DNA of 64,000 bases, from contig CM000155.2 in NCBI GenBank assembly GCA_000004695.1, forward strand, positions 1,504,001-1,568,000, in the 5' to 3' direction. The stretch is from Dictyostelium discoideum (lineage: Eukaryota). Below the pieces are notes generated by a model that was not told the origin of the DNA, searched no databases, and was given only the letters and a program-made list of their open reading frames with translations. Position 1 is the stretch's first letter. Every line of letters begins with the position of its first letter. Below are positions 13,373-39,528 of the stretch, one piece after another. A program made the position numbers and the translations under genes.

Positions 13373-13463
13373 AAACGGTTTTATTTTTATTATTCAATTG
13401 TATTAAATTTTTTAAACTATATTATATCTTTCATTATAACTGAACATATATTAAAATTTATAT

Positions 13464-14747: not shown

Positions 14748-14821
<74 letters not shown>

Positions 14822-14918
14822 TGGATTAACAAGATTGATATATGTCCATCTGTGTTAATACGAGTTTTATTTAATATTTATTTAAAGGCTTATCATTTAA
14901 GCTGAAGGGTTATTTTAA

Positions 14919-18623: not shown

Positions 18624-19882
18624 TATGAGATGATATCGATCTCCTCTTGGGAGTCGTATAGCTGCGGTTTGGATGGTGAAGGGTAGATACTCTCTATGAA
18701 GCTCTCAATGATTCCTTTACTTTCTTTTTTGACAGGTGTCTTAGGGGTGGATGGGATGTAAGGGTTGCTTCTATTTATTGTTGGTGAGAGTTGGGTGACT
18801 TCATTGTTTGAGTGGATTTCCTCGTTCTTGCGTTTATGTGATGGAGGGATGTTTAGTGTCTTCTCTCTGTTTTCCGAGGATGAATGGATGTTATTGCTCG
18901 TTTTGTTGGCATTGTCTTTTTGGATGGCGTTGGATGTTGTGGTAGTGGTTGTGGTGGGTTTGACAGATTGAGATTCTGCTGGGTTTTTGGGGGGAAGAGG
19001 TTGAGATGACTTTTTTGCTTGGGCTTTTTTCTCTTGGGGGTGATTGTTTTTCAGACTGATTGTTTGCTGGGGGTTGTTTGTTTGTTGTTGTGGTTTTGGT
19101 TGAGAGGATTTGATTGCTATCCTGTTTTGGATGTTGGGAGGATCATCTGTCATCTCATCTTCTAATGGTTCTTCCGTGTTGTTTGACTTCTCTACTTTCT
19201 TGTTTTTCTTTGNTGAGGAGTAGGTTTTGGTGGCCGTTCTGATGGTAAAGTTTGCGATTTCTGTAATGTGTTGGCCAGATTTCATTTGATCGCCTATTTT
19301 GCATTCTATTAGACCGAATACTATGAGGTGGTCGGTGGAGTATATAGTATTGTATATTGCATAGGGTATTTCTTCTGCAAAGGCAGTTTTGATGAGGGCG
19401 TCCACTATTCCTGCCTTTTCTCTGGGAATTCTTACTCTTCCTGTGAGGACGTGGAAGTCTCTACTGGAGGTGATGAAGGTTCCCAATTTGCTTCTATCTC
19501 TAATGATATTTAGGAGAGATTGTTCGTTTTTAATCATCAGGTGGATCATTTTTCTAGTTCCTTTGCCTATGTATATCTTGTCGAATGGGATATCGTAGTT
19601 TGAGAGTGTTTTTCTCATTTCTTCTAACCCCTTGAGATCCATTTTGGGGAATTCGAGTGTAATTGGGTAGAATCCGTTGTTCTTCTCATAGGTTGAGAGC
19701 GCAGTCATGTTCAATATGGTCTCGCAGTATTTGGAGATGTCTTTGAGGCCTATTGATAGTTTGGGGTAGGTCTCCTTTATCTCTGCTGTTTTTGTGGAGA
19801 ATTCCTTAATGAAGTTCTCCGATGCCTCGTCCATATGGGTGGAGGGGTTGGCCATTTTAGCCGCGTCTGCGTAGGAATTCAT
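18623..19882 (-). CDS. TRE3-like ORF1 (419 aa), copy A
   Basis: ORF with a basic/Q/T-rich C-terminal half. Contains one ambiguous base (n at 19212, giving X in the translation). Stop TAA overlaps the ORF2 ATG (TAATG) at 18621-18625. Confidence 0.6.
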   Translation of the reverse strand: MNSYADAAKMANPSTHMDEASENFIKEFSTKTAEIKETYPKLSIGLKDISKYCETILNMTALSTYEKNNGFYPITLEFPKMDLKGLEEMRKTLSNYDIPFDKIYIGKGTRKMIHLMIKNEQSLLNIIRDRSKLGTFITSSRDFHVLTGRVRIPREKAGIVDALIKTAFAEEIPYAIYNTIYSTDHLIVFGLIECKIGDQMKSGQHITEIANFTIRTATKTYSSXKKNKKVEKSNNTEEPLEDEMTDDPPNIQNRIAIKSSQPKPQQQTNNPQQTISLKNNHPQEKKAQAKKSSQPLPPKNPAESQSVKPTTTTTTTSNAIQKDNANKTSNNIHSSSENREKTLNIPPSHKRKNEEIHSNNEVTQLSPTINRSNPYIPSTPKTPVKKESKGIIESFIESIYPSPSKPQLYDSQEEIDIIS

Positions 19883-20082
19883 CTCGATGGGATTCCTTTG
19901 AATCGGCGATTTGGTATGTTAGATCTGTAGATCGTGGTGGATTGGTGATTTTTTTTGAAAGATTGGTTAAAATTGACCGAGATTAAAGATAGAAAAGGAT
20001 GAATTACTTTTCACGTGTATCTTGTATCCTCTTGATCGCGGTACGGTTTTTTTTTCCAAATCTTTTGAGCAACTTGTCGTAG

Positions 20083-20127
<45 letters not shown>

Positions 20128-20224
20128 TGGATTAACAAGATTGATATATGTCCATCTGTGTTAATACGAGTTTTATTTAATATTTATTTAAAGGCTTATC
20201 ATTTAAGCTGAAGGGTTATTTTAA

Positions 20225-23200
20225 TCATATGAATTGATCAAAAGATATAATATTTGGGAGAGATGATTCTGGAATACAATAGTAATTAGCTGTTGTTTTT
20301 CTTAGCTTGATCGTTGAAGTGAGAAGGATCTTAGGATCTTTGAAGTTATTATGGTCTTTTGCTGATAAGTTTTTCAGATCTTTTGCTTTTTTGATGTATT
20401 CTAGAGTGGCCAATTTGTGCCATTTCTTTAGAAGGGAGCTGTATGATAGTGATTCATCTGTTAAAGGATCTTCACTGTATATTTGATTGCAAATCCAAAT
20501 CCAAATGTTGTGGAGGATAAGGGCCATTAGGTTTCTATATGCGAATGATCTGGTTAGATCATAGTCTATTGCTTTATAGTTCCATTCAAAGTATTCTTTG
20601 TGGAATCTGTGGTTGGCGTAATCTGCATTCACTTCTTGATCTTTTTTGGCTGTCGGTGATAATTTTGGAGTTATTCTATTAATGAAATTGTTATTTTGCC
20701 TAATTCTTGTATGGTGCCAGTTTTTACCTTTGCCTGTGGTAATATAGATGAAATTTTTGAGTTTATTTATTTTTATGAATTGTTTTGTTTTCTTGCATGA
20801 GAAGAACAGGTGACCGTATGGGTCTTTGCTCATATCTTCTTTGCAGAGTGGGCATTGTTTGTTGTGAAGGTAGTTTATTGGAAGGCATCTGGCATGGAAT
20901 CTAAACATTGTGTCTCTTGTTTTAGGGTCTTTTATCTTCAGTATGTTGTTGAAGAGTTGATTATAGCTGTAGCCTCTTAAGTTTAGAGATGATTGGAATT
21001 CCGTTTTAGGGATGGTTGGATTTTGGTCTTGAATTGTGGTATACCATTCTGCCAGTGAAAGTGGTTGTCCATTTTCGTTTTTTATGGATGTGAGATTATT
21101 GTTGAAGATTGCTTTTTTTATTCTTATTTTGTTCCATTCATCTAAGTTTTCTTTTAGGTATCTGGATGTGAATTTGTTTTTTTGGATCTGATATTCCCAG
21201 CTTTTGTGATGAGATGAGTTTGTTTGTTTGGTTTCTAGTGCTAGGATGAACTGGTTTATGATCCAAAGTTTCTGCGCCAGTTGTCTCAATTCTATATTCC
21301 AAATGTTCCAGCCCCCTACTTTTAGTGGGTATCTTGCTCTTTTGGTTCTCATTAAATTAATAACTTGAAATCCACTAGCATTTTTGTTGTTTGGTGCCGA
21401 TAAAAACCATTCGACTAATTTATTGATTTGGTTTAATTCCTCTTCCTTAAAGTTCTCTACATATGAATAGTAGGTTAATTTAGAGAGTGCGAATGCTTTG
21501 AGGATGTTGGTTTTGGTTTTGATTGTTGAGTCAGTGGTTTTCCATAGTACTAAGGATGATCTTATTGTGTTTAATATTTCTGGTATTTTTCTTGTTATCC
21601 CTTTGCCTGTGAAGAAGTATCCCAAGTATCTTTCTGGATTTGTAGATATTGGTATTCTTTGGTTGGTATTGTCTGGGTTGCCTATAAGAATTGATGAAGA
21701 TTTGTCGATGTTTAGTTTTGAGGAAGTGGCTTTGCAAAATGAATTGAAGTGTTGTAGTACTAATTCAAGTTGTTGAGAGTCTGGGACCATTGAAGCCGAG
21801 TCGTCTGCAAAGCTTTGGAATTTCTCTCTGTGGTCGCTGTTGTTTAGAGGAAGGCCAGTAATTCGGTCATCTTGTAAAATTTTTCTAGCTAAAGCCTCTA
21901 TTACAAGGACGAACAGGGTGGGTGATAGTGGATCTCCTTGTTTGACTCCTCTTTTGATCTCAAAGGGTATAGTAGTTCTACCATTAATTTCAATTCTTGC
22001 TTCAGATTTGGTGAGTAGATTCATTATCAGGTTGATTATATTGGTTGGAATGTTGATGTGTTGTAGTGATCTGAGTATTGAACCGTGTGAAATCGAGTCA
22101 AAAGCTTTTTCGAAATCATATAGTGTAATTATTCCGTTAATTCTTTTATCATTACAATAGTTGATTAATTCGTTCATTGATATGATATTATCTATAATGA
22201 ATCTGCCTGGTACGAAACCTTTTTGATTGTGGTTGATCACTTTCGTTAGTATTGGGATTATTCTATTGTTTATTAGTTTTGAGTGGATTTTATATATACA
22301 GTTAGCCAGTGTAATTGGTCTTCTGTTTTTGATTAGTTCGGGGTCTCCCTTTTTAGGTATCGTGATAATGAGGCCTTCTTTGTAATTTTTGCTAATTAGA
22401 TGAGGATTTCTTAGAGTGTCGTTGAATGCTGAGGCCAGTATTGGAGCTAGTTTTTCTTTGTGTGTTATGTAGAATAAGTTTGGAATTCCATCTGGGCCTG
22501 GAGATTTGTGTGGGTTCAATTGTTTTATTACTTCTAGGATCTCTTGTGTTGTGAATTCATTTTCAAGGTTGTCCCATGTTGAGTCCCTGGTCACTGTCCA
22601 ATTTTCCAACATTTCATAATGAGATGGTGCGTCATCTTCTTTGTAGTCATAAAGATTTGAGTAATATTTTACGTATTCTTCTTCGATCAATTCCTGTTTG
22701 TTGATTGTTCTACCTTGTGCATCTTTTACTGCGTTGATGGTGAAATCATTGTGTCTTTTCTTGATTCTCGCGGAGATGTACTTGAGTGAAGTTCTTCGCA
22801 ATAGTGTTCATGTTCAATTCTTGTTTAAGTTGTTCTTCTCTTTTTTTAGATTCATTTATTGCTGAAAGGGTTGCGAAGGCTTGGTCTTTAAATTCTGTCT
22901 CTAGTAGGGAGATTAGATTTTTGATGTTTGCCTTATTGTTGTAGTCATTTTGTTTTTGAAATTCTGTGTATAGTTGTTTTATTTTGTTTAGTAAGCTGTT
23001 GAGTTGAGAGAAGGAAATAGAGTTATGGTTGGATGACAGCTCCCTTGAATAATCGTTAAGTAGGAAGTCTATTTTCTTAAGCATTATGCTTGAGAGGATT
23101 GAGGATTTTTTTAATCTCCATCTGCGCTTGTTCATCTGTATGTTGGGTAGAGTGAAGGTGGTTGATAGGAAGTTGTGATCTGATAGAGGTATGTCATTAA

Positions 23201-23828
23201 TTTTTGGGGGGATTAGGTTCCTTAAGTATAATTGGCTGTAGTTGATTATGCTATTGTTAAGGTATATTCTGTCTAGTCTCCTTTCCAAGATTCTTGTGAG
23301 GTTATTGTTTGTGTTGTGTATCGTTCTTGAGAAGGTGGGTCTTTTATTTAGTTGGTCCATATCCATTAGGTTATTTGAAATTCTGATGGCTTCGATTACT
23401 GTGGCCATCTCATCTGGGGATTGTGTTGTCAAGTTGCCTTGGTCATCATTTGATGTGTGATTGTCATTGAAGTCTAAACAATTGAAGTCGCCTGCTATGA
23501 TGTCGATGTTTTTTTTAGGGTTAGACGTTAGGTTGTGGTATTGGTTGTTGAAGTGTTTGTTTAGTGTTGAAGCTAGTATTTTTCTTTTATCAGGTTGGGC
23601 CGGGGCGTATATGGCCAAGATTCTCGTTGTGGTATCTTTTATTAGAATGTCTGATATTATTAGTCTACCTTCTATTATGAATATTGGTGAGAGTTTTATG
23701 TTTTGGTTGTTGTGGTTTAGTATTCCTATTCCGTTGCCTCTGTTGGTTGCGCTAATGATGGAGCCAGGAAATAGCTGGTGTGCTTGTGTTGCGTCGGCGT
23801 TGAGTTCATTGACTATGGTTAGTGCCAA
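20225..23828 (-). pseudogene. TRE3-like ORF2, copy B, frameshifted
   Basis: The APE ORF 22746-23828 and the RT ORF 20225-22801 overlap out of frame. A 5-bp insertion (tcgat, about 23924-23928) near the ORF1/ORF2 junction is absent from copy A. Confidence 0.55.
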
Positions 23829-23936
23829 TGAGTTTGGGGGGGATTGGGATTTGATAAAGTCTGTTTTGTTTTTGAAGGAGGTGTCAGTGCCCCAACCTCT
23901 GACATTCCATTGGTTGATTTTGATCGATTACTACCA

Positions 23937-25190
23937 TTATGAGATGATATCGATCTCCTCTTGGGAGTCGTTTAGCTGCGGTTTGGATGGTGAAGGGTAG
24001 ATACTCTCTATGAAGCTCTCAATGATTCCTTTCCTTTCTTTATTGACAGGTGTCTTAGGGGTGGATGGGATGTAAGGGTTGCTTCTGTTTATTGTTGGTG
24101 AGAGTTGGGTGACCTCGTTGTTTGAGTGGATTTCCTCGTTCTTGCGTTTATGTGATGGAGGGATGTTTGGTGTCTTCTCTCTGTTTTCCGAGGATGAATG
24201 GATGTTAGTGCTCGTTTTGTTGGCATTGTCTTTTTGGATGGCGTTGGATGTTGTGGTAGTGGTTGTGGTGGGTTTGACAGATTGAGATTCTGCTTGGTTT
24301 TTGGGGGGAAGAGGTTGAGAGGATTTTTTTGATTGGGCTCTTTTCTCTTGGGTTGATTGTTTATCAGACTTATTGTTTGCTGGGTTGTTTGTTTGTTGTT
24401 GTGGTTTTGGTTGAGAGGATTTGATTGCTATCCTGTTTTGGATGTTGGGAGGATCATCTGTCATCTCATCTTCTAATGGTTCTTCCGTGTTGTTTGACTC
24501 TACTTTCTTATTTTTCTTTTGTGAGGAGTAGGTTTTGGTGGCCGTTCTGATGGTAAAGTTGGCGATTTCTGTATTGTGTTGGCCAGATTTCATTTGATCG
24601 CCTATTTTGCATTCTATTAGACCGAATACTAGGAGGTGGTCGGTGGAGTATATAGTATGGTATATTGCATAGGGTATTTCTTCTGCAAAGGCAGTTTTGA
24701 TGAGGGCATCCACTATTCCTGCCTTTTCTCTTGGAATTCTTACTCTTCCTGTGAGGACGTGGTAGTCTCTACTGGAGGTGATGAAGGTTCCCAATTTGCT
24801 TCTATCTCTAATGATATTTAGGAGAGATTGTTCGTTTTTAATCATCAGGTGGATCGTTTTTCTAGTTCCTTTGCCTATGTATATCTTGTCGATTGGGATA
24901 TCGTAGTTTGAGAGTGTTTTTCTCATTTCTTCTAACCCCATGAGATCCATTTTGGGGAATTCGAGTGTAATTGGGTAGAATCCGTTGTTTTTCTCGTAGG
25001 TTGAGAGAGCAGTCATGTTCAATATGGTCTCGCAGTATTTGGAGATGTCTTTGAGGCCTATTGATAATTTGGGGTAGGTCTCCTTTATCTCTGCTGTTTT
25101 TGTGGAGAATTCCTTAATGAAGTTCTCTGATGCCTCGTCCATATGGGTGGAGGGGTTGGCCATTTTAGCCGCGTCTGCGTAGGAATTCAT
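23937..25190 (-). CDS. TRE3-like ORF1 (417 aa), copy B
   Basis: 97-98% identical to copy A ORF1 at protein level. Confidence 0.6.
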   Translation of the reverse strand: MNSYADAAKMANPSTHMDEASENFIKEFSTKTAEIKETYPKLSIGLKDISKYCETILNMTALSTYEKNNGFYPITLEFPKMDLMGLEEMRKTLSNYDIPIDKIYIGKGTRKTIHLMIKNEQSLLNIIRDRSKLGTFITSSRDYHVLTGRVRIPREKAGIVDALIKTAFAEEIPYAIYHTIYSTDHLLVFGLIECKIGDQMKSGQHNTEIANFTIRTATKTYSSQKKNKKVESNNTEEPLEDEMTDDPPNIQNRIAIKSSQPKPQQQTNNPANNKSDKQSTQEKRAQSKKSSQPLPPKNQAESQSVKPTTTTTTTSNAIQKDNANKTSTNIHSSSENREKTPNIPPSHKRKNEEIHSNNEVTQLSPTINRSNPYIPSTPKTPVNKERKGIIESFIESIYPSPSKPQLNDSQEEIDIIS

Positions 25191-25427
25191 CTCGATGGGA
25201 TTCCTTTGAATCGGCGATTTGGTAAATTAGATCTGTAGATCGTGGTGGATTGGTGATTTTTTTTGAAAGATTGGTTAAAATTGACCGAGATTAAGGATAG
25301 AAAAGGATGAATTACTTTTCACGTGTATCTTGTATCCTCTTGATCGCGGTGCGGTTTTTTTTTCCGTAGTTGTATATTCCACATACCTAAAATTTATAAA
25401 TTATAACTATAAAATTTACATAAAAAA

Positions 25428-25500
25428 TGGAGAAGAAGGGTATCGATCCCTTTACCTCTCGCATGCTAAGCGAGCGCTCTACCATCTGAGCTACATCCCC
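25428..25500 (-). tRNA. tRNA-Ala (anticodon AGC)
   Basis: Minus-strand sequence GGGGATGTAGCTCAGATGGTAGAGCGCTCGCTTAGCATGCGAGAGGTAAAGGGATCGATACCCTTCTTCTCCA. It has an A box TAGCTCAGATGG, an anticodon loop CTTAGCATG and the G3:U70 Ala identity pair. The B box GGGATCGATACC is slightly atypical. TRE elements on both flanks argue for an active Pol III gene. Confidence 0.8.
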
Positions 25501-25540
25501 TTTGATGAAAATGAAATGAAAGTCGTATAGAAACTTCTGT

Positions 25541-26216
25541 GAAATGAGATCGAAAAAAACAAACAACAACAACAATCTCTTTTTTTGATTATTTCATTTT
25601 TCATATAAAAAAGACTTAAAAAACAAATAAATAAATAAATAAACTATTTTAAAAAGCCATCTTTTTACTTTATTGTAATTTATTATTTGTTTCGTTTTGA
25701 GAATTTTGCGTAGCAAAATTTTCAAAAAAAAAGCAAAAAATAATCAGATCGAAAAAAACAAACAACAACAACAATCTCTTTTTTTGATTATTTCATTTTT
25801 CATATAAAAAAGACTTAAAAAACAAATAAATAAATAAATAAACTATTTTAAAAAGCCATCTTTTTACTTTATTGTAATTTATTATTTGTTTCGTTTTGAG
25901 AATTTTGCGTAGCAAAATTTTCAAAAAAAAAGCAAAAAATAATCAGATCGAAAAAAACAAACAACAACAACAATCTCTTTTTTTGATTATTTCATTTTTC
26001 ATATAAAAAAGACTTAAAAAACAAATAAATAAATAAATAAACTATTTTAAAAAGCCATCTTTTTACTTTATTGTAATTTATTATTTGTTTCGTTTTGAGA
26101 ATTTTGCGTAGCAAAATTTTCAAAAAAAAAGCAAAAAATAATCAGATCGAAAAAAACAAACAACAACAACAATCTCTTTTTTTGATTATTTCATTTTTCA
26201 TATAAAAAAGACTTAN

Positions 26217-26269
<53 letters not shown>

Positions 26270-26929
26270 CGGGGAACCAAGTTAATTAAAAAATTTCCAA
26301 ATTTTTAACTTTTTAAGGAAAATTAAAAAGGATGGAAGGAAATTAAATGGAAATTCCCAACCACCCCCCCAAATATTAGGCAACCCAATGGCCTACAAAA
26401 AATAAGCAAATTTGGGGATAAAACTCATTTAAAAAAAAAACAATTCAAATACGTCTTAAACTTCATTCCCGAACCCGGCGATAAAATAAAAAAAGATTTA
26501 AAAAAAAGTTTGGCCAAAAAAAATGTTTTAATCAAAAAGCCCCTGTAAAAAAAAAAAAAAAAATAAAATGGGGTTTAGCATTTCAAGGAGAAGCAAAAAA
26601 AAATTGCGTTATCCCATTCCAAAAAAAAAAAAAATATATAATTTTTATCCCATAAAAAAAAAAAAAAAAAAAAAAAAAAGGTAAACCAACCCCTCTTTTA
26701 GAGACCCTGTAAAAAAAATAAAATAAAATAAAATGAGATCTAGCATCTCAAGGAGAAGCAAATAATAATTGCGTTATCCAATTCAAAAAAAAAAAATATA
26801 TATAATTTTACAATTACATTCAAGAAAAATCTGGAGGATCCAGAATCAATTGGGGAATAGAAATATTCAACAGACTAGACATTCCATAAACAGCCAACGC
26901 CATAGCCATTATTTGCGAAAACATCTGGA
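25541..26929 (+). mobile_element. TRE5-A-derived block 1: A-module tandem array (about 3.4 copies) + poly(A) + degenerate internally deleted TRE5-A copy
   Basis: Begins about 45 bp upstream of the tRNA-Ala 5' end, divergent orientation. 198-bp A-module units at 25549-26215. Region 26263-26929 is an error-rich copy of 30105-30730. Confidence 0.6.
25549..26215 (+). repeat. TRE5-A A-module tandem repeat, period 198 bp, about 3.4 copies
   Basis: unit atcagatcgaaaaaaacaaacaacaacaacaatctc…gcaaaaaataatc repeats at 25745, 25943, 26141. Confidence 0.8.
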
Positions 26930-27029
26930 NNNNNNNNNNNNNNNNNNNNNNNNNNNNNNNNNNNNNNNNNNNNNNNNNNNNNNNNNNNNNNNNNNNNNNN
27001 NNNNNNNNNNNNNNNNNNNNNNNNNNNNN
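26930..27029. other. assembly gap (100 N)
   Basis: run of n; left edge sits in ORF2-3' sequence and right edge in A-module sequence. Confidence 0.95.
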
Positions 27030-28280
27030 AACAACCATCAACAACGATCTCTTTGTTTGATTATTTCATTTTTCATATAAAAAAGACTTAAAAAACAAAT
27101 AAATAAATAAATAACTATTTTAAAAAGCCATCTTTTTACTTTATTGTAATTTATTATTGGTTTCGTTTTGAGAATTTTGCGTAGCAAAATTTTCAAAAAA
27201 AAAGCAAAAAATAATCAGATCGAAAAAAACAAACAACAACAACAATCTCTTTTTTTGATTATTTCATTTTTCATATAAAAAAGACTTAAAAAACAAATAA
27301 ATAAATAAATAAACTATTTTAAAAAGCCATCTTTTTACTTTATTGTAATTTATTATTTGTTTCGTTTTGAGAATTTTGCGTAGCAAAATTTTCAAAAAAA
27401 AAGCAAAAAATAATCAGATCGAAAAAAACAAACAACAACAACAATCTCTTTTTTTGATTATTTCATTTTTCATATAAAAAAGACTTAAAAAACAAATAAA
27501 TAAATAAATAAACTATTTTAAAAAGCCATCTTTTTACTTTATTGTAATTTATTATTTGTTTCGTTTTGAGAATTTTGCGTAGCAAAATTTTCAAAAAAAA
27601 AGCAAAAAATAATCAGATCGAAAAAAACAAACAACAACAACAATCTCTTTTTTTGATTATTTCATTTTTCATATAAAAAAGACTTAAAAAACAAATAAAT
27701 AAATAAATAAACTATTTTAAAAAGCCATCTTTTTACTTTATTGTAATTTATTATTTGTTTCGTTTTGAGAATTTTGCGTAGCAAAATTTTCAAAAAAAAA
27801 GCAAAAAATAATCAGATCGAAAAAAACAAACAACAACAACAATCTCTTTTTTTGATTATTTCATTTTTCATATAAAAAAGACTTAAAAAACAAATAAATA
27901 AATAAATAAACTATTTTAAAAAGCCATCTTTTTACTTTATTGTAATTTATTATTTGTTTCGTTTTGAGAATTTTGCGTAGCAAAATTTTCAAAAAAAAAG
28001 CAAAAAATAATCAGATCGAAAAAAACAAACAACAACAACAATCTCTTTTTTTGATTATTTCATTTTTCATATAAAAAAGACTTAAAAAACAAATAAATAA
28101 ATAAATAAACTATTTTAAAAAGCCATCTTTTTACTTTATTGTAATTTATTATTTGTTTCGTTTTGAGAATTTTGCGTAGCAAAATTTTCAAAAAAAAAGC
28201 AAAAAATAATCAGATCGAAAAAAAACAAACAACAACAACAATCTCTTTTTTTGATTATTTCATTTTTCATATAAAAAAGG

Positions 28281-28290
<10 letters not shown>
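27030..28290 (+). repeat. TRE5-A A-module tandem repeat, period 198 bp, about 6.4 copies
   Basis: unit starts at 27215, 27413, 27611, 27809, 28007, 28205. Confidence 0.8.
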
Positions 28291-28341
<51 letters not shown>

Positions 28342-28416
28342 GGAACCAAGTTAATTAGAAAATTTCCAGATTTTTAACTTTTTAAAGAAAAATAAAAAAG
28401 ATAGAAAGAAAATAAA

Positions 28417-29751
28417 ATGAAAATCACAAACAACACCACAAATATTAAGCAACACAAATGCCTACAAAAAATAAGCGAAATTGTGGATAAAACTCAATTA
28501 AAAAAAAAACAATTCAAATACGTCATAAACATCAATCACGAACCAGACGATAAAATAAAAAAAGATTTAGAAAAAAGTTTGGACAAAAAAGATGTTTTAA
28601 TCAAAAGTAATAATACATTCAAAATTCTCACAGACAGTATTAGTACAGTAATCTATTTTGTAAATATGTTTGATGCAGAATTAAAAGGACAATTTATAAC
28701 CACTATAAGACCAAAAAATATGTATACAGATTTTGATTGGTATAAATCACTCACAGAAATAGAATGGGTAATAGAAAATGAAGGATGTAAACTAATTAAA
28801 TCAGAAATTAAAGGCGAAACTCTAATTATCAAAACAGTGAAAAGAGTCGTAGAAGAATTTGACACTATCATTGAACTAGACAATCTAACATTAATTGGAC
28901 ACTCCAACAAAGGATGGAGAGATCAAACCTCATTACCAGAAAATCAAGAAGAAAACAAAAATAAAAAACAATCAGATGAACAACAACCACAATCTACATC
29001 AGAACAAATACCAAAACAAGGAAAAAGAACAATCATTATCCCACCAATCACATCCTCATCTAATGATAAAACATTTATGGCCCTAGATGATACAGCTCAA
29101 AAGGTAATAGAAGCATCACTAGAAAACGTAGATGAACTAACAAGAATAGAGAATGAGATCAATACACAATCGATAAACAATCAAGAAATTAAAACAAAAT
29201 CAGAAAAACCTATCGAACCACCATCTCCATACAATACACCAATAAAACAACACGGCGAAACAAAGGGACTAACAACGGAAGAAAAACTTAGAGAGGCAAA
29301 TGATATCTTCGACTTCACCAGCCCAAACACTGATGCAATAAGAAAAATAGAATTCCCACTTTCAATCCCTTCAAATCAATGGTTCTTCTCCTCTCCAATA
29401 AAACATATCATGAGTTTCAGCCCAACCTATGGTACACCATCGAAAATTATCGATTCACCAAGTAAATTGTTAAACACACCAAAAAAGAAACAACAAGACA
29501 AAACAAACAAGACCAACAAAACACCAGTCAAACCAAAATTGGGTGAATATGGACAAAAAAGCATAAAAACAAAAATGGATGAAGATATAGACAACTTCAA
29601 CAAGGAAATTCTAAAACAAATCAATAAATCAAAAAACCCCACAAACACACAAGACCAACAACACAACGAACAAAGTAAAGATCAGTTAGAAGACAAAATA
29701 AACCAGAAACTTCAAAAGGTAGATAAAAATCTACCCCAAATAAAACTATAA
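28417..29751 (+). CDS. TRE5-A ORF1 protein (444 aa)
   Basis: Complete ORF MKITNNTTNIKQHK… directly downstream of the A/B modules. The first 62 codons recur at 30149 and, in degraded form, at 26340 and 31200. Confidence 0.65.
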   Translation: MKITNNTTNIKQHKCLQKISEIVDKTQLKKKQFKYVININHEPDDKIKKDLEKSLDKKDVLIKSNNTFKILTDSISTVIYFVNMFDAELKGQFITTIRPKNMYTDFDWYKSLTEIEWVIENEGCKLIKSEIKGETLIIKTVKRVVEEFDTIIELDNLTLIGHSNKGWRDQTSLPENQEENKNKKQSDEQQPQSTSEQIPKQGKRTIIIPPITSSSNDKTFMALDDTAQKVIEASLENVDELTRIENEINTQSINNQEIKTKSEKPIEPPSPYNTPIKQHGETKGLTTEEKLREANDIFDFTSPNTDAIRKIEFPLSIPSNQWFFSSPIKHIMSFSPTYGTPSKIIDSPSKLLNTPKKKQQDKTNKTNKTPVKPKLGEYGQKSIKTKMDEDIDNFNKEILKQINKSKNPTNTQDQQHNEQSKDQLEDKINQKLQKVDKNLPQIKL

Positions 29752-29759
29752 AGAAAAAC

Positions 29760-30003
29760 ACAATAAGAATAGGTGTTTGGAACGTCCAAGGATCCAACAC
29801 CATCCAATCTGCCAGCATAATAAACACCGTTTTAGACAACAACAAGCTGGACGCAGCACTTCTAACTGAAACAAATATAAAAACAAATAAAATTTACTCA
29901 ATAAATCAACAATATAAAAACAAAATAACACACCACGCACCAATTGATAAAACAGGACAAGGGGTGTCACAAATCATCATCAACACCCGCAATAGAACTT
30001 CCT
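29760..30003 (+). pseudogene. TRE5-A ORF2 N-terminal (APE) fragment, truncated
   Basis: …IRIGVWNVQGSNTIQSASIINTVLDNNKLDAALLTETNIK… ends after about 80 codons, followed by the 3' tail and poly(A). Confidence 0.5.
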
Positions 30004-30047
30004 AAACATCTCAAAAAATACAATAATTCACTCAGTACTTTCTATAA

Positions 30048-30104
<57 letters not shown>

Positions 30105-30107
<3 letters not shown>

Positions 30108-31032
30108 CAAGTTAATCAGAAAAATAAAAAAGATAGAAAGAAAATAAAATGAAAATCACAAACAACACCACAAATATTAAGCAACACAAATGCCTACAAA
30201 AAATAAGCGAAATTGTGGATAAAACTCAATTAAAAAAAAAACAATTCAAATACGTCATAAACATCAATCACGAACCAGACGATAAAATAAAAAAAGATTT
30301 AGAAAAAAGTTTGGACAAAAAAGATGTTTTAATCAAAAAGACCCTGTAAAAAAAAAAAAAAAAATAAAATGAGATCTAGCATCTCAAGGAGAAGCAAATA
30401 ATAATTGCGTTATCCAATTCAAAAAAAAAAAAATATATATAATTTTAATCCAATAAAAAAAAAAAAAAAAAAAAAAAAAAGGTAAACCAACCCCTCTTTT
30501 AGAGACCCTGTAAAAAAAATAAAATAAAATAAAATGAGATCTAGCATCTCAAGGAGAAGCAAATAATAATTGCGTTATCCAATTCAAAAAAAAAAAATAT
30601 ATATAATTTTACAATTACATTCAAGAAAAATCTGGAGGATCCAGAATCAATTGGGGAATAGAAATATTCAACAGACTAGACATTCCATAAACAGCCAACG
30701 CCATAGCCATTATTTGCGAAAACATCTGGAGAGGAAGAAACAAGAAAATCCACGAAGGAATAACACTCAAAAACTTAAGAAAACAACTACTAGTACACGA
30801 ACTAAAGAAAACTCAAACAGCAGCTTGGGAAAGAACAAAAAACAACATATACAAACTAATCAGACAAGAAAAAAAAGCAACCAACAACGAACAAATAAAA
30901 AAATTCAAAAACATCATCTCCCTACAACTCGAAAGATTTAGCAAACACTGGAACTCACCACTACACACAGTAGCACTACCATCAAACCTCAACAAATATA
31001 TTACGTCTCTAAATACACTCTACACCCCCCAA

Positions 31033-31075
<43 letters not shown>
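30105..31075 (+). mobile_element. internally deleted TRE5-A derivative (ORF1 codons 1-62 fused to the ORF2 3' end/C-module) + poly(A)
   Basis: 30149-30349 is identical to the start of ORF1. 30570-31035 is the ORF2 C-terminal coding region ending …LNTLYTPQL, followed by (A)40. Confidence 0.55.
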
Positions 31076-31078
<3 letters not shown>

Positions 31079-31099
31079 ATACAACCTTAAAAGGCACTT

Positions 31100-31371
31100 G
31101 TAATATACAATAAAATTAATAAAATGAGATATATCTCAAGAAGAAGCAACTAAAAATTGCGTTATTCTATTCAAAAAAAAAATATATATAATTTTAATGC
31201 CTACAAAAAATAAGCGAAATTGTGGATAAAACTCAATTAAAAAAAAAACAATTCAAATACGTCATAAACATCAATCACTAACCATACGATAAAATAAAAA
31301 AAGATTTAGAAAAAAGTTTGGACAAAAAAGATGTTTTAATCAAAAGTTATAATACAATTCAAAATTCGAAA

Positions 31372-31416
<45 letters not shown>

Positions 31417-31560
31417 TAAACCAACCCCTCTTTTAGAGACCCTGTAAAAAAAAAAAAAAAAATAAAATGAGATCTAGCATCTCAAGGAGAAGCAAATAAT
31501 AATTGCGTTATCCAATTCAAAAAAAAAAAAATATATATAATTTTTTTTTATAAACAAATA
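31100..31560 (+). mobile_element. further short TRE5-A-derived fragments (ORF1-start-like and internal motifs with poly(A) runs)
   Basis: diverged copies of the 30150-30350 and 30340-30440 motifs. Confidence 0.4.
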
Positions 31561-32170
31561 AATAAATATTTGAATCCACAATTCAAAAAAAAAAACAAGT
31601 TATTAAAAAAATATTAAAGATAAGATAATTCCAGATCAAAATGTATCAAATTTTCCCTTTTGATGTAATGGTACTCTCTGTAGGTAATAACCTAAAGATG
31701 TTTATTACATTTTTGTAATGAATAGAAGTTTAGAAGGAGGGACAAAGGTGGAATTAGATATGTGAAAAAAAAAAGATTTTTTAAAGATTAGGTAATGTTC
31801 AGTTTTATTTTTATTTTAATATTTTTTTTTACAAATAGTATTTTGAAATAGTAATTTTGTTTCTTTTATTATTACTTGTCGAACTGGAGGAGATGGAGGT
31901 GAAACATCTGATTGTTTTCTTTGAATATTTAAATTTTTTATTAAGTGATCTCGTTACATCTTTTATTTCCTTTAATTGAATCTATTTGAATTGCTATTGA
32001 ATTACTATTTATTAAATGATCATTTTCATTATAATTTTTAATTTGATTCATTAAATTCTTATAATGGTGATCATATCTGAAATACTAATCTAAAATTGTG
32101 ATTGTGTAGTTTTTATTCTTATTGTTTTTTACAAATAATATTTTTAAAATAGTAAATCCATTTGATAATT

Positions 32171-35145
32171 TTAATAATATTGGCAGTTCCTATAAGATTT
32201 TATTGTATTGATAATTGAATCTAGTTGGATTACTAATGAATTTCTATTTATTAAATAATCATTTTCATTAAAATTTTTAATTTGATTCATTAAATGGGGA
32301 AAATATTCATTATCACATGAGTCCTTAAAATACTGATTTAAGATTGTAAATGATGATTTGGTAATATCAGTTTTGCCAAATTGTAATGATGTTTTACAAA
32401 ATTTTACTATTTGAAGTGTATGTAAATAATAATGATATTTGTCACTATAATTTTCTCCAATTACTTTTAAAATATTATTAATTGATGATAATTCTAAATT
32501 AAGACAGCACCACCTTATGCTTGGTAGTACTGCACAATTCTTTTTATAAACTGAACATGAATATTCCCATTCCTTTAAAAATAAATCATTTCTTTTTAGT
32601 GACATGAATAACTTTAAATTATTCAAATAATCAGATTCATTTTTGACATAGAAACTTTCTTTATCTTTATATGGACGACTTATCATTGAATCCAATAAAT
32701 CATTAAATGGTGATTGTTTAATGGATTCTAATGTTATCGATTCAAGCAAATCTTTATTTCTATAATCAATCGATTCATAATATTCATACAATAATCTTGA
32801 TCTTTTATAAATGAAAAATAGTTTTATTTCTTTTGTTTCAACATTAATTTCCAATTGATTTTCAATTAAAAATTGATAAATTTGCTCAATTAATTCATGA
32901 TTTATATATTCTCTTTTATTCAAAAATGTATGTACTAATATTTGAAAATATAATTGCAAATTTGCTTGATGTGAGGTTGTTGTAACTGTTATTATTGTTG
33001 CTGTTGATGATGATGATGAACATTTTTGAAAATTTCTACTATTTCTATTGATTTGGTTATTTGTTTTAATTATTTCTTTTGATTTATTAAATTGGTTGAT
33101 GAATGATTTAATAAGAGATTCTGAAAAATTTGGCTTGCTAAAATCAAAATCTTCACCTTTAATTATAAAATTCTCTATTATGAATCTTGAATAATTATTA
33201 TTAGATATTATATTTCCCTGTGTATCCTTAAATAAATTTTCAGCAGGTTGGGCATTTAAATTGGTGTTGATTTTAATTTTTGAAATATTAAATTTCGCTT
33301 GAGGATTTAATGTGCTTGTATTATTTCTATCACTATCATCTTCATAAAAACCATTTCTACATATATATTCTACTAAATCGTAATATTCTCGAGGAGTAAC
33401 CATTTTATTATCAAAAATAAAATTGAATAATCTATTATATTCTTGATAAATTGATTCATCTTCTTGATTTAATAATCTTTCATTTAAAGAATATGGTAAA
33501 CAACGTAAATAATAAAGTACAGATTTAAATTGAATACCTAATGAATGAAAATGTTTAATCTCTTGAATATTACATTGTATAATTGCTTTTAAAAATGGTA
33601 TTCGATAATAATATTGTAAATCTTCAGTGATTGAATATAACTCTATAAAGTGATTCGATAATTCAATAGAATCGAAATAGAAATAAATTTCAAATAACCT
33701 TAATTCTAATTTATTTAATGATGGTTCTCTCTGATACCATTGTACAACCCAATCCATTGTTTCAATATCTTTGATAATAGGGAGGGGATGATTATATCTA
33801 TCGTGAAAGATTATCATTAATGGATTCCATGTTTTTGGTAAATATTTTTTATATTTATTTGGTATATATTTGAATAGTTCTTCATATGTTAATTTATTAT
33901 CTATTTTTAGCATTATACCACCAATGGTTTCATGTAAATATTTTTCTATATCAACTTTAAAACTAATTCCTTCATATTTATCATCATCCTCTTCATCATC
34001 ATCTTCTTCTTCTTCTTCTTCTTCTTCTTCTTCATCTTCTTCTTCTTCTTCTTCTTCATCTTCTTCTTCTTCTTCTTCTTCTTCTTCTTCTTTTTCTTCT
34101 TCTTTTTCTTCTTTTTCTTTTTCTTCATCTTTTTCTTTTTCTTCCTTTTCTTTTTCTTCTTTATCATTTTGAAAACCATTGATATTATTTATTTTTGATA
34201 AAAGGGTTCTAAGGAATTCAACTGATCTATTTAAATTTTCATTTGCGGTTGAGTAAATATAGAAAGAATAACGTTTTTGAGGATCGAAAGTGAAATCCAT
34301 TTGTTTCAATATTGAAGGAATGTAATTTTTAAGACTACATTCAAATGCAGTCTTTTTAAAATCATCAATTGACATTAATTCATCAGGCAATACTTCATCA
34401 TGATATTTTGATAAATATAATTCTAATAGTTGATCTGATCGTGTTAAGATAATTAATTTTATAAGCATTTTTTGAATATGATCCTCTTCATTTTGTTCTA
34501 ATAATAATAATAATAATTCTGATTGCTGTTGTTCTTTTGGTTTTTGTTCTCCAAATAATTCTAAACATTTTAATAAAATTTCTAATCTATCTTGATTGTT
34601 AAAATTTTCACGTTCTTTAAATACCTTTTCAATATAATCTAATAGCTTATATATAGTTTTGTAATTTATAGTAACTGCTAAATATTCAAATCTAATGTCT
34701 TTATTTTGACGTTTTATAAATTCTAAATTTTTATTTGATTGATTTGGTTGTTCTTTTATTATATGATTTATCATAATACGGGTTAATGTAGTAAAATGTC
34801 TGCTGTTATCAAATAAATATGGGATAGAATCAAATGAAAATTCATTATCCATTAAACTCATTGTATATGATTCAAAGTTTGTTGTTGTTGTTGTTGTTGT
34901 TGTAGTTGTTGTTTTTGTTGTATTATTATTTTTATTATTAATATTATTAAGAGTTTCAAGTAATAAATTGATAATTTCATAACCACCATTTTTATATGCA
35001 ACTTTTATTATTTTTTTATCTTTCAAAAATTCAAAATTCCTTTTTTCAAGTACTAATTGCAATATCTCTTTATATAATTCAATGTTGATTGATCTTTGAC
35101 ATTTTAATCTATAATATTCTCTTGGTGAATCTATTATTTGTACTC

Positions 35146-35244
<99 letters not shown>

Positions 35245-35548
35245 CATTATTATTATTATTATTGTTATTATTATTATCAATTAAATATAGATTGAATAAT
35301 GACTTTATATTAAATTTACTAATATGAACATATTCATTATTTTTTAATTTATATTTTAGTAATTGAAATTGATTATTTTTAATCATCCATTTTAAATCAT
35401 AAATATGTTTAAATTTTGTCCGATTCTCTTTACCTAATGATATGGGTTCATAATTAATCCATTCATTATTTTCTATATGATCTAATATTTTGTAAAATAA
35501 ATATTTATTGTGAATTACTTTCCAAAATAGTACTTCATTAATATCCAT
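32171..35548 (-). CDS. hypothetical low-complexity protein, 1125 aa (poly-N about 55, poly-T, long E/D and KE tracts)
   Basis: single uninterrupted ORF with a true ATG; no domain recognised. Confidence 0.5.
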
Positions 35549-35966
35549 ATTATTATTATTATAAAAAATAATTGTGGAAAAAAAAAAGAAAATAGGAAAA
35601 AAATTTGAAAAAAAAAAAAAAAAAAAAATCTTGGAGAATGAGGATAGTTTTTTTGGTTGAAAAAAAAAAAAAAAAAAAAATTTTTAATTCCAAATAAAAA
35701 AAAAAAAAAATAAAAAAATAATAATATTAATGTTCCCAATTTTTTTATTTATTTTTATTGTCATTTTGATTTTTTGAATTGTCCTCTTGAGGGTTAATTT
35801 TTTTTTTTTTTTGTAACAATTGAAACCACCATTAAAATTGTGGAGTTTATATAATAAGTTAATTGATTTATTTGGTTTTTGTGTTGAAATAATGATAATT
35901 TCCTTTTATTACGCTTTGAGCAAGCAAAAAAAAAAAATAAAAAGAAAAAAAAAAAAAAAAAAAAAA

Positions 35967-36060
35967 ACAGATGACTACATTCATTTTATATATTTTTTAT
36001 ATCATTTTGTGTATTTTTGAGTGCTCTATTTATCTATACTAAATTCATATTAAAAATTAA
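35967..36060 (+). repeat. about 95-bp interspersed repeat, copy 1
   Basis: acagatgactacattcattttatatattttttatatcattttgtgtatttttgagtgctctatttatctatactaaattcatattaaaaattaa. Confidence 0.7.
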
Positions 36061-36280
36061 ACAAAATAAATATACCCCATTGTCCATGCCAAAATTACTA
36101 CATTAATTTCAGCAGCCTCAGTAATTTTAGCATGCATAGAGCACCTATTTTAATATGGTAAAACTAGCGGGCTGAATTTAATATGATAAAATTGGTATCA
36201 AAAATTAATATGGTAAAACTAGCGGGCTGAAATTAATACACCCAATCAAATCCAATTTCAAAAAAAAAAAAAAAAAAAAA

Positions 36281-36374
36281 ACAGAATGACTACATTCATT
36301 TTATATATTTTTTATATCATTTTGTGTTTTTGAGTGCTCTATTTATCTAAACTAAATTCATATTAAAAATTAAT
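36281..36374 (+). repeat. about 95-bp interspersed repeat, copy 2 (direct, 220 bp from copy 1)
   Basis: about 95% identical to copy 1. Confidence 0.7.
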
Positions 36375-36531
36375 AATTTAAAAAAAAAAAAAAAAAAAAT
36401 CAAAAATAAAATTAAAATGAAAAAAAAATTTTTTGGGTGTCCCAATTGAATGTTTTTATTAATTTTATTTTTCATTTTTTTTTTTTTTTATTTTTTTTTT
36501 TTAATTTTCATTTTCTTTTTTTTTTTTTTAA

Positions 36532-36817
36532 ATGATGAATGATTTAAATTTATCAAAACTATCATTAGAAGAATCTAATGATGGTAAAAATTCCCCATCA
36601 CATCCAAGACAACGTATTCAATTCTATCAAGATGAATCAACAACCACATCATCATCACCTTCACAACAAAATCAACAACCACCACAAATGTATGAACAAC
36701 AATCACCAACACCACAAATGTATGAACAACAATCACTAACACCACAAATGTATGAAAAACAACCATTACCAGAAATGTATGAACAAAACCAGGTACCTTC
36801 AACAACACAATACTACC

Positions 36818-36915
<98 letters not shown>

Positions 36916-37890
36916 CCATATTATAGTAATAATGGTTTTGATATTCCAACACAAACAAACCCACAACATAGCGAAATTACTTCACTTGAATTTGGTATTG
37001 ATTTACCAAGTGATGGTGGTAATATGAGTGGAATAACAAATGATAGTATTCAAACAGGTAGTTGGTTTGATGATATATTAAATTATCAAAAACAATATTT
37101 TAATAGCAGTAATAATAGTAACAGCAATAAAGCAACAACAACAACGACAGTTCAACAAACTTCTAATGATGATATAGAAAATTATTTAAAAGATCACATT
37201 CAAAATAAAATAAAAGAAAATCAAGAACAAAAACAATACACCCATCCAATCAATATGGAATATGGTATAGATCAAAGTGTATTATCATCATCAACATTAA
37301 TATTCAATAGACATGATCAATTTAATAAATCAAATTTACCAAATGGTTTCTTATTATCACCTTTTTATCATCCAATTTCAACGCCAACCTCTTATGATTA
37401 TCATCCACCACAATGTGATAATTGTTATTCCTATGTAAATATATATTGTAAATTAAATAAACCATTGGAAGTAACAAATAATAGTAATAGTAATAGTAAT
37501 AATAATAATAAATCAAAAAAAGGAAAAACCTCTTCACTTTCATGGACTTGTTCAATTTGTTTGAATGAAAATTTAATTGATGATGGTAAAAGTGGTGTAA
37601 GAAATATATTAGATGTTGTTAAAGGTTTAGGCTGGTGGAGTACAAATCATTATAAATCTGTATTCTCTTCTGAAACTTTTGATATTAAAATTAAAAAAAG
37701 AAAATCTTATAAATCAAAATCAATTGCTAGTGTAATTGATAATGGTATTGATAATGATGATGATGATGATGATGATGATAATGAAAATAATATTAATTCT
37801 GCAAAAAATAATAGTATTAAAAATAATGATAATAATAATAGCACATATATTTTTATAATTGATGAAAACATTTCAACAACAGATTTAAAA
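36532..37890 (+). CDS. sec24: Sec24-like COPII coat subunit, exon 1 (poly-Q N-terminus, Sec23/24 zinc finger, start of trunk domain)
   Basis: Q(36) tract; zinc finger CDNCYSYVNIYCKL…WTCSICLNEN; YIFIIDENIS; donor GTAGGT at 37891. Confidence 0.6.
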
Positions 37891-37981
37891 GTAGGTATTT
37901 TAATTTAACAATTCTATTTATTTATTATGTATATTTACTAATTTTTTTTTTTTTTTTTGGTAAAAAATAAAAATAATAAAG

Positions 37982-39426: not shown

Positions 39427-39528
39427 GTAATGTATCAAAATAATAAATAATAATAATAAATGTATCAAAATAATAATAATAATAATAAATTATACTAATA
39501 ATAATAATAATACAATATTTTAAAATAG

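Follow-up and report, generated by a model that had tools for sequence, protein, structure and literature searches.

Two TRE5 retrotransposon clusters at different tRNA genes, very probably abutted at an assembly gap in Dictyostelium discoideum

The region at positions 25,541 to 31,560 of the analyzed Dictyostelium discoideum DNA (a stretch of 64,000 nucleotides, hereafter the window) very probably holds two separate clusters of TRE5-family non-LTR retrotransposons that are abutted by a 100-N gap, with artefactual sequence on the left of that gap. A different tRNA gene is associated with each block flanking the gap, Ala-AGC on the left and Gly-GCC on the right, and each cluster stands head-to-head with its own tRNA gene, ≈46–50 bp upstream (Table 1). 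The published integration distance of TRE5-A is 44–54 bp upstream of a tRNA gene, in opposite orientation, and at eight sites we found TRE5-A arrays beginning 45–57 nt from tRNA genes. On the left, the first A unit (25547) is separated by 46 nt from the 5′ end of tRNA-Ala (25500); at the site matching the right block, the array starts 47–50 nt from tRNA-Gly(GCC). The initial annotation had described a gap-spanning mosaic, but the right-hand side is instead an orderly stack of four insertions, all closed by the 13-bp target-site duplication (TSD) TATATATAATTTT. TRE5-A itself, its A-module promoter, the non-autonomous A.2 form and the stacking at tRNA genes are biology already known. Our comparisons were made with GCA_054883475.1, an independent chromosome-scale assembly in which L001–L009 denote individual sites. 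This assembly comes from another stock, probably AX2-214 as judged by locus-tag series and a preprint; therefore, differences from the window could be real strain differences.

Table 1. Positions of the features at the two tRNA-gene sites (window numbering).
Feature	Position	Strand	Basis or remark
tRNA-Ala(AGC) gene	25428..25500	-	ARAGORN; landmark of the left TRE5-A, 5′ end faces the element
Target-site sequence CTTCTGTGAAAT	25534..25545	+	Motif search; proximal edge of the left element
Left A-module array	25547..26216	+	BLAST, unit by unit: 3 full 199-bp units and the invariable 75-nt partial
Internal poly(A), 51 nt	26217..26267	+	Between left A array and B-module; read quality collapses beyond
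Error-rich consensus, very probably artefactual	26268..26650	+	5′-type B-module, deleted B/C junction, C-module, degraded TATATATAATTTT
Clean duplicate of 30452-30730	26651..26929	+	100% identity; E2 stub, TSD at 26797-26809, start of E3
100-N gap	26930..27029	.	N run
Right A-module array	27030..28284	+	BLAST, unit by unit: 188-nt first unit cut by the gap, 5 full units, 75-nt partial
Internal poly(A), 53 nt	28285..28337	+	Between A and B; 42 nt in L007
5′ B-module	28338..28606	+	79-nt leader and first 190 nt of ORF1
TRE5-A ORF1, 444 aa, intact	28417..29751	+	Open reading frame
Internally deleted ORF2	29752..30045	+	BLAST against full-length copies in L002 and L003
Internal poly(A), 60 nt	30046..30105	+	Between ORF2 and 3′ B-module; also in full-length TRE5-A.1
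E1 3′ end	30106..30433	+	3′ B-module, B/C junction, C remnant, oligo(A); aligned to TRE5-A.1 3′ end
TSD TATATATAATTTT closing E1	30434..30446	+	Motif search
E2, 151-nt 5′-truncated TRE5-A 3′ stub, with TSD	30447..30610	+	Poly(A) and full C-module
E3, 5′-truncated related element, with TSD	30611..31195	+	ORF2 3′ fragment, 40-nt poly(A), C-like module
E4, 5′-truncated TRE5-A, with TSD	31196..31544	+	Undeleted B/C junction (A.1 type)

The right-hand element E1 is a non-autonomous TRE5-A.2, with the order [A]n, poly(A), B, ORF1, deleted ORF2, poly(A), B′ and C. The B-module of the family contains the start of ORF1 (PMC3159450), and in E1 the ATG (28417) falls inside this module; 28386–28606 is 100% identical to 30118–30338, a B repeat of 220 nt. 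The ORF1 of 444 aa annotated after the right array holds, and the identical protein is encoded at no fewer than nine sites of GCA_054883475.1 and annotated several times in AX4. The following ORF2 is incomplete, as had been noted, but not simply truncated: an internal deletion of 3,133 bp, a feature diagnostic of TRE5-A.2, joins its 5′ 237 nt to its 3′ 58 nt. The same junction occurs at 99.7–100% identity in L001–L009, each with its own flanks, and we therefore regard the structure as a mobile element and not a local rearrangement. TRE5-A is characterized by an ORF2 with endonuclease, reverse-transcriptase and zinc-finger domains; in full-length relatives elsewhere this ORF encodes 1047 aa, for which a precomputed Pfam match to RVT_1 exists. 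In the 3′ B-module, E1 has deletions of 6 and 29 nt. At the B/C junction, 69 nt are deleted relative to a full-length copy, whereas the published BC deletion of TRE5-A.2 is 72 bp (PMC3159450); the difference is within poly(A) length variation. None of six unique ORFs of the window had an exact match, probably owing to introns in the annotated models.

Positions 27030–31544 are accounted for by one target site that received four insertions in succession, with E2, E3 and E4 all 5′-truncated. E4 is the oldest, outermost insertion and E1 the youngest, innermost one. In the window, four C-modules are each followed by TATATATAATTTT; in L007, the matching right-hand site of the other assembly, this sequence is also found immediately between the A array and tRNA-Gly. 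What had been taken for internally deleted derivatives are thus separate insertions, each with its own TSD. E2 (164 nt with its TSD) is present in the window and absent from L007. E3 shows 67% identity to the TRE5-A.1 ORF2 and 81–84% to the TRE5-A C-module, and it has no B-module. TRE5-C has a C-module 78% identical to that of TRE5-A and no 3′ B-module (PMC3159450), and in E3 the ORF2 3′ end is likewise followed directly by a C-like module; likened to this description, E3 is probably a TRE5-C. Successive insertions at a single tRNA gene are known to pile up, not into each other, as TRE-TRE tandems (Spaller et al. 2017). The window likewise has four elements with one 13-bp TSD, in a stack that mixes TRE5-A.2, TRE5-A stubs and the TRE5-C-like element.

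Both A-module arrays have a period of 199 according to Tandem Repeats Finder, not the 198 bp first given, with 3.5 copies on the left (25543–26241) and 6.4 on the right (27030–28310), at 98% matches in each case; these values bear out the earlier estimates of about 3.4 and 6.4 copies. Full units of the left array are 100% identical to the consensus, and the gap-cut unit of the right array is 96.8% identical, with read-end quality. At L007, whose flanks are 99.7–99.9% identical to the window, the array comprises 8 full units and the partial one (8.4 units, 8217–9905), a figure that may be some units off, as may all copy numbers of perfect tandem repeats in long-read assemblies. The amplification of the A-module is therefore real. 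Since the right array is cut by the gap, its 6.4 units are a lower bound; the copy number of the left array is a lower bound or unreliable. Neither value in the window can be trusted, and the right-hand site has at least 8 units in the other assembly.

A census of GCA_054883475.1 placed these arrays in the context of the family. Across 24 TRE5-A copies, the left end has the form [A]nB with 1 to 36 units: 13 arrays have one unit, three have two, two have three, and the others have 7, 8, 8, 10, 21 and 36. The arrays of the window, first described as unusually long, are accordingly not unusual. An A array always ends in a fixed 75-nt partial unit followed by a long poly(A), and 22 of the 24 begin at position 1 or 7 of the unit. 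The promoter-module arrays of this set reach lengths of up to 7 kb. Full-text literature searches for “A-modules” with Dictyostelium and for GCA_054883475.1 gave no matches. We hypothesize that the 75-nt partial unit, a built-in terminal redundancy, could allow unequal exchange, slippage or reverse-transcriptase template jumping, and that arrays would then lengthen or shorten in 199-bp steps. Arrays may be inherited via an RNA starting at a fixed point of the outermost unit.

The sequence between the left array and the gap is of a different nature. The edges of the gap fall in different modules, as had been observed, with an ORF2 3′ fragment on the left and unit position 12 of an A-module on the right; single N bases also occur at 26216 and 19213. 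Positions 26810–26929, at the left edge, are identical to 30611–30730, and the ORF2 piece that they carry, only ≈67% identical to TRE5-A ORF2, comes from a related, TRE5-C-like element. The whole of 26651–26929 belongs to the right-hand site, and the Gly-site TSD is found at 26797, in the tail of the left contig. The initial annotation had read 26263–26929 as an error-rich version of 30105–30730. The richness in errors is evident, but a single source is not: 30106–30730 fits only at 87% with 37 gap columns, and a composite of the 5′ B-module (28338–28606) and 30339–30730 fits better (92.9%, one gap). Nor are the errors extra G/C bases in homopolymers. They are substitutions, 45 mismatches with 1 indel, all within 26268–26650, and every one of the 45 miscalls equals a neighbouring base of the reference (expected 20.9 ± 3.1). 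In the B part, 29/31 match the next base and in the C part, 10/11 match the previous one, so that the direction flips at the B/C junction. The errors start right after A51 on one side and after A26 on the other.

Judged from this error pattern, the data fit a pair of converging reads that both slipped out of phase after passing a homopolymer. The forward read would leave the A array by way of A51 and the reverse read would arrive by way of A26, both losing phase. The two may then have been merged via the 220-nt sequence common to the 5′ and 3′ B-modules, which would have skipped ORF1 and put right-hand sequence on the tRNA-Ala contig. The suspicion of a partial assembly artefact is upheld by the neighbour-base miscalls together with the Gly-site TSD on the left contig, and so is the warning that copy number and order near the gap are unreliable, for which the gap-cut right array also speaks. 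Positions 26268–26929 are unusable as sequence, being an out-of-phase consensus and then a duplicate of 30452–30730, and the sequence itself gives no support for a join across the gap.

Two other accounts of these blocks deserve consideration. Short TRE5-A derivatives lacking ORFs exist, such as the second element in L008, and one could read the sequence as correct as written, with a diverged A-B-C derivative without ORF1 on the left followed by true downstream duplicates. We find this hardly credible: true divergence would not give neighbour-base substitutions in 45 of 45 cases with a switch at the module junction, nor would it place the onset of errors precisely behind A51 in one direction and A26 in the other, and such an element would close with the wrong TSD for its target site. 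It is equally far-fetched that the A arrays are themselves artefacts in which mis-stacked reads over-expanded a single promoter module. Units that are 100% identical are indeed uncountable for an assembler, and the gap truncates the right-hand array; however, in the independent assembly the matching site shows 8 units and other tRNA genes up to 36. Moreover, the start of some arrays is out of register (unit positions 21 and 57), and therefore more than one unit was present at copying or truncation. The original element description by Marschalek and colleagues in 1992 reportedly already gave the left end as [A]nB.

The reading as two clusters at two tRNA genes raises the question of how far apart they lie. 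In the window, CTTCTGTGAAAT is found once by motif search. Its partners follow two C-modules in L008 (positions 11996 and 12529), and the one at 12529 is adjoined by unique sequence that runs towards a ribonucleotide-reductase gene, whose protein is XP_629553/EAL61130. This reductase gene is the upstream neighbour of the window's tRNA-Ala in two assemblies of wild D. discoideum. At the tRNA-Ala site of GCA_054883475.1, a 2.2-kb deletion has taken out the tRNA together with the TRE3 5′ end and any A array, and its junction retains 22 nt of B in inverted orientation; the cross-assembly confirmation of arrays therefore covers the right-hand site only. L006, a tRNA-Ala(AGC) site with 21 A units, was rejected as a match of the left block since only 91 nt around the tRNA agree. 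The two matching sites in GCA_054883475.1 are ≈380 kb apart and in opposite orientation (≈1,181,624–1,186,331 on the plus strand and 1,564,143–1,566,806 on the minus strand of the same 2.2-Mb record). Given blocks at two tRNA genes so separated and inverted elsewhere, the gap hides more than a few repeat units: it is either a wrong or unproven join or a recombination breakpoint.

It is possible, although we hold it only tentatively, that the junction is real and that the gap marks an inversion of ≈380 kb on chromosome 6 relative to the other stock and the wild isolates; alternatively, a 380-kb segment of the reference would be mis-oriented. Recombination between inverted TRE5-A.2 copies at tRNA-Ala and tRNA-Gly would have inverted the segment in the sequenced strain; the two A blocks would then be the ends of one recombinant array with the gap inside it, and only the 0.7-kb tail would be spurious. 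In the other assembly, the two elements are inverted and near-identical over ≈2.1 kb, which is the substrate required, and the window corresponds to exactly one of the predicted junctions, in which the left side carries the TSD of the Ala site and the right side that of the Gly site. The builders of the reference placed the contigs adjacent to each other, and large rearrangements among laboratory stocks are documented. On the other hand, the two sides are linked only by repeat sequence and an out-of-phase consensus, and a segment between identical inverted repeats is the classic case of a mis-oriented scaffold. TSD pairing and wild-isolate synteny moreover indicate that the other arrangement is ancestral. 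The choice lies between a misoriented segment in the reference and a transposon-mediated inversion that distinguishes laboratory stocks, and those who map or engineer this part of chromosome 6 should check which applies.

The inverted duplication of chromosome 2 in AX3/AX4 was considered as a source of the junction and discarded, the reductase gene being on a 3.6-Mb chromosome 6 record. Its duplicated arm of ≈750 kb also disagrees in size with the separation of ≈380 kb.

As for known systems, there is no essential difference between the element of the window and TRE5-A.2 (formerly DRE) of D. discoideum. Shared features are the head-to-head site 46–50 nt upstream of a tRNA gene, the order A, B, ORF1, B, C with the ORF1 start in B, the large ORF2 deletion, the B/C deletion of ≈70 nt, the oligo(A) end and the TSD. 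The A-module measures 199 bp here against a published 200 bp (PMC3159450). The element agrees with the described modular ends of TRE5-A, for which A is given as ≈200 bp and B as ≈290 bp at the 5′ side, and B, C (134–137 bp) and oligo(A) at the 3′ side. It also agrees with the description of A.2, a large ORF2 deletion combined with a B/C deletion given as 72 bp that leaves ≈87 bp of C. The A-module is an RNA polymerase II promoter, and promoter activity has been published for a single A-module (PMC3159450). The open-access descriptions of TRE5-A that we consulted draw one A-module, whereas the window has 3.4 and at least 6.4 units, and they do not mention the long internal poly(A) tracts that we see at every module boundary.

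Finally, the arrays invite a comparison with mouse L1, whose 5′ UTR is built of promoter units of ≈200 bp (A, TF and GF monomers) repeated head-to-tail. In arrays of this type, each unit would be expected to have promoter activity, scaling with the number of units. TRE5-A shares with the L1 monomer arrays a variable copy number and an outermost unit that is sometimes truncated; however, sequences and hosts are unrelated, and the TRE5-A array always ends in a constant 75-nt partial unit and poly(A). The likeness would be a functional analogy only. The census of 24 arrays could serve to ask whether array length tunes TRE5-A expression.

Two arrays of a tRNA-targeting TRE5-A retrotransposon's A-module flank the only long N run in the window (26930-27029; isolated Ns occur at 26216 and 19213), which is AT-rich Dictyostelium discoideum DNA with one tRNA gene found by ARAGORN, tRNA-Ala(AGC) at 25428-25500 on the minus strand. 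Tandem Repeats Finder resolves 3.5 copies at 25543-26241 and 6.4 at 27030-28310 (98% matches in each); these counts bear out the arrays and gap of the initial annotation, with a period of 199 bp rather than 198 bp. Compared unit by unit with a reference starting AGATCG, the left block holds three perfect units and a 75-nt partial one, and the right block five perfect units and the same 75-nt partial, preceded by a unit that the gap shortens to 188 nt (96.8% identical). In both, the partial unit passes into poly(A), 51 nt long on the left and 53 nt on the right. For the right-hand array, 6.4 copies are a minimum. On the minus strand, 14143-25365 is taken up by a tandem pair of TRE3-type non-LTR retrotransposons that stop 63 nt past the 3′ end of tRNA-Ala, so that one tRNA gene carries TRE3 on one side and TRE5 on the other; the N at 19213 falls within one TRE3 ORF1.

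The arrays had been called unusually long, with the proviso that the amplification may be real. Our comparison used GCA_054883475.1, probably the AX2-214 long-read assembly (2025 preprint), judging from its locus-tag series and its reductase protein, which is identical to that of AX4. Many sites in it encode an ORF1 protein that exactly matches the window's. At locus L007, which matches the right side of the window (30503-39961 versus 11900-21335, 99.75% identity; 99.89% for window 31600-36000), the array (8217-9905) counts eight full units before the partial and is preceded by TATATATAATTTT, the target-site duplication (TSD) of a tRNA-Gly(GCC) gene located 47-50 nt off. Among 24 TRE5-A copies, reached via three ORF1 variants, 13 arrays have one full unit, three have two, two have three and two have eight, with single arrays of 7, 10, 21 and 36. 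They occur in autonomous and non-autonomous copies, and all close with the identical 75-nt partial and poly(A) of 31-42 nt; the first unit begins at position 1 or 7 in 22 of them and is out of register in two (positions 21 and 57). The matching site and the family's range show the amplification to be real, and the window arrays are ordinary for TRE5-A because surveyed copies span 1-36 full units. Marschalek et al. (1992) reportedly described the left end of TRE5-A as [A]nB.

The longest array (36.5 units, 7.3 kb; L019 2643-9907) lies 49 nt upstream of tRNA-Pro(TGG) (L017-L019, CM142511.1, ~3.02-3.05 Mb). At least three head-to-tail full-length B-ORF1-ORF2 units follow it with a period of 4,891 bp, the 3′ B-module of one doubling as the 5′ B-module of the next, which suggests amplification by unequal exchange between two B-modules. 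The 21-unit array (perfect or near-perfect units, 4.3 kb; L006 5506-9905) belongs to a TRE5-A.2 element at another tRNA-Ala(AGC) copy.

In its minimal form the 5′ end is unit(1-199) plus unit(1-75), with 75 nt directly repeated on either side of 124 nt. Unequal exchange, replication slippage or template jumping at the 5′ end of the RNA could all act on this built-in repeat, and each would gain or lose exactly 199 bp. That arrays of any length begin at position 1 or 7 may reflect transcripts initiated at one fixed site in the outermost unit and copied in full; growth in place would explain it just as well. The closest analogy is mouse L1, whose 5′ end carries a variable array of ~200-bp promoter monomers. 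The A-module is the polymerase II promoter for the plus strand, and the ORF2 protein of full-length copies mobilises A.2 copies in trans (PMC3159450). An upstream tRNA gene boosts the activity of the A-module.

The order of modules right of the gap agrees with the published AB-ORF1/ORF2-BC architecture, in which A is a 200-bp promoter, B (~290 bp) holds the ORF1 start and C measures 134-137 bp (PMC3159450). ORF1 had been noted as followed by a truncated ORF2; ORF1 is intact and ORF2 is indeed incomplete, but by an internal deletion of 3,133 bp relative to full-length copies in the other assembly, which fuses its first 237 nt to its last 58 nt. The identical junction recurs at nine other sites (99.7-100% identity), and 69 nt are missing from the B/C junction when it is compared with a full-length copy (published deletion in TRE5-A.2, 72 bp; PMC3159450). 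By its sequence this is therefore a standard non-autonomous TRE5-A.2; a local rearrangement was rejected as its origin, given the nine recurrences. Internal poly(A) tracts of 26-60 nt mark each TRE5-A module boundary (A/B, ORF2/B and within B/C) and differ in length between the assemblies (53 versus 42 nt at A/B), which hints that the modules were perhaps once joined from separately polyadenylated pieces.

Coordinates of features in the window and of the two tRNA clusters in the comparison assembly
Feature	Position	Strand	Remark
TRE3-type ORF1 copies	18623-19882, 23937-25190	minus	ORF2 pieces between
Leader		 	79 nt, downstream of right A block
ORF1	28417-29751		intact, 444 aa
ORF2 remnant			294 nt, after ORF1
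Poly(A)			60 nt, after ORF2 remnant
Second copy of ORF1-start region	30118-30338		100% identical to 28386-28606
Short 3′ module			after second B copy, terminates in oligo(A)
E1	up to 30433		TRE5-A.2
E2	30447-30597		TRE5-A 3′ stub, 151 nt
E3	30611-31182		related element, 5′-truncated
E4	31196-31531		TRE5-A, 5′-truncated, B/C junction undeleted
Internal poly(A) tracts	26217-26267, 28285-28337, 30046-30105, 30455-30480, 31037-31076, 31369-31414
tRNA-Gly cluster	~1,181,624-1,186,331	plus	2.2-Mb record JBTAPE010000034.1
tRNA-Ala cluster	~1,564,143-1,566,806	minus	2.2-Mb record JBTAPE010000034.1

What had been described as internally deleted derivatives after ORF2 are separate insertions. The 13-mer TATATATAATTTT comes after the oligo(A) of four consecutive C-modules (30434, 30598, 31183 and 31532) and so delimits four elements, E1-E4; the mosaic is a stack of successive insertions. 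Non-nested tandems from repeated insertion at one tRNA gene are on record (PMC5391098), and the innermost element is the youngest because each new copy inserts ~48 bp from the tRNA. E3 has an ORF2 fragment with only 67% identity to that of TRE5-A, a C-like module at 81-84% and no B-module, all in agreement with the published description of TRE5-C (PMC3159450), an assignment that its features fit. E2 with its TSD (164 nt, 30447-30610) is repeated in the left contig at 26646-26809 and is missing from L007 (11995-12008). Recombination between the two surrounding C-module plus TSD repeats (97% identical over 109 nt) probably removed it from that site, a loss rather than a gain since E2 sits outside the younger E1.

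Left of the gap, 26263-26929 had been taken for an error-rich read of 30105-30730. Error-rich it is, but 26268-26929 matches 30106-30730 at only 87% with 37 gap columns, whereas a composite of the 5′ B-module (28338-28606) and 30339-30730 fits at 92.9% with one gap. Mismatches to the composite are confined to 26268-26650, and 26651-26929 is identical to 30452-30730. The supposed extra G/C bases in homopolymers are substitutions, since length is conserved. All 45 mismatches equal a neighbouring base of the reference, against 20.9 +/- 3.1 expected for random wrong bases (maximum 31 in 2000 trials): the following base for 29 of 31 in the B part, the preceding base for 10 of 11 in the C part. We interpret this pattern as that of a template population shifted by a single base within a homopolymer and read from both directions. 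The forward read would have left the A array via A51 (26217-26267) and the reverse read come in via A26 (26654-26679). The direction of miscalls flips at the B/C junction, the point at which reads from the 5′ B (toward ORF1) and the 3′ B (from C) cease to agree; the two were presumably merged via the 220 nt common to both B-modules, which would have dropped ORF1 and the ORF2 remnant. Sanger reads fail in this region because of the long internal poly(A) tracts.

The clean end of the left contig carries TATATATAATTTT at 26797 and the start of E3, and by this sequence belongs to the tRNA-Gly site. The left array, on the other hand, is edged at 25534-25545 by CTTCTGTGAAAT, the target-site sequence of the tRNA-Ala site, which occurs nowhere else in the window. 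The left flank, made of unique genes and the two TRE3 copies, matches loci L008 and L010 (99.2% over 9.9 kb); in L008, CTTCTGTGAAAT comes after each of two C-modules, and beyond the second lies unique DNA toward a ribonucleoside-triphosphate reductase gene. The two clusters are ~378-385 kb apart and inverted in JBTAPE010000034.1. In two wild D. discoideum assemblies, this tRNA-Ala is flanked ~340 bp upstream by the reductase gene and on its other side by the genes of the window's left part. From the TSD pairing and this gene order, the separated, inverted arrangement is ancestral, and the window shows one junction of a would-be inversion between two inverted, near-identical TRE5-A.2 copies. 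It is possible that the reference scaffold was placed in the wrong orientation, as is typical where a segment is bounded by identical inverted repeats and gaps; it is also possible that the sequenced strain is truly inverted, both A blocks then being the ends of one recombinant array. Under either reading, the 0.7-kb tail is not genuine sequence and neither copy number can be relied on. The miscalls in 26268-26650 and the other site's TATATATAATTTT in the left contig thus uphold the warning that copy number and order cannot be trusted. The initial observation is confirmed and its interpretation supported; the biology was already known, and the useful output is a precise artefact map and a caution on the join across the gap.

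The left array is without independent support because the matching tRNA-Ala site of the comparison assembly lacks about 2.2 kb, tRNA and any A array included. At L008 9860-9900 the missing part (window 24082-26241) comprises the TRE3 5′ part, the tRNA-Ala gene and the A array, with a 22-nt inverted B-module fragment, gtaggcatttgtgttgcttaat, at the junction; either the stock truly carries this deletion or the assembly is wrong at this spot. In the wild isolate GCA_054859385.1 (L028 13105-17035), an LTR-type retrotransposon gene replaces TRE5-A at the ancestral reductase/tRNA-Ala site. This gene, with the reductase gene on one side and the tRNA on the other, encodes 1176 aa with protease, reverse-transcriptase and integrase domains, so that, depending on the strain, elements of different classes target this one tRNA gene.
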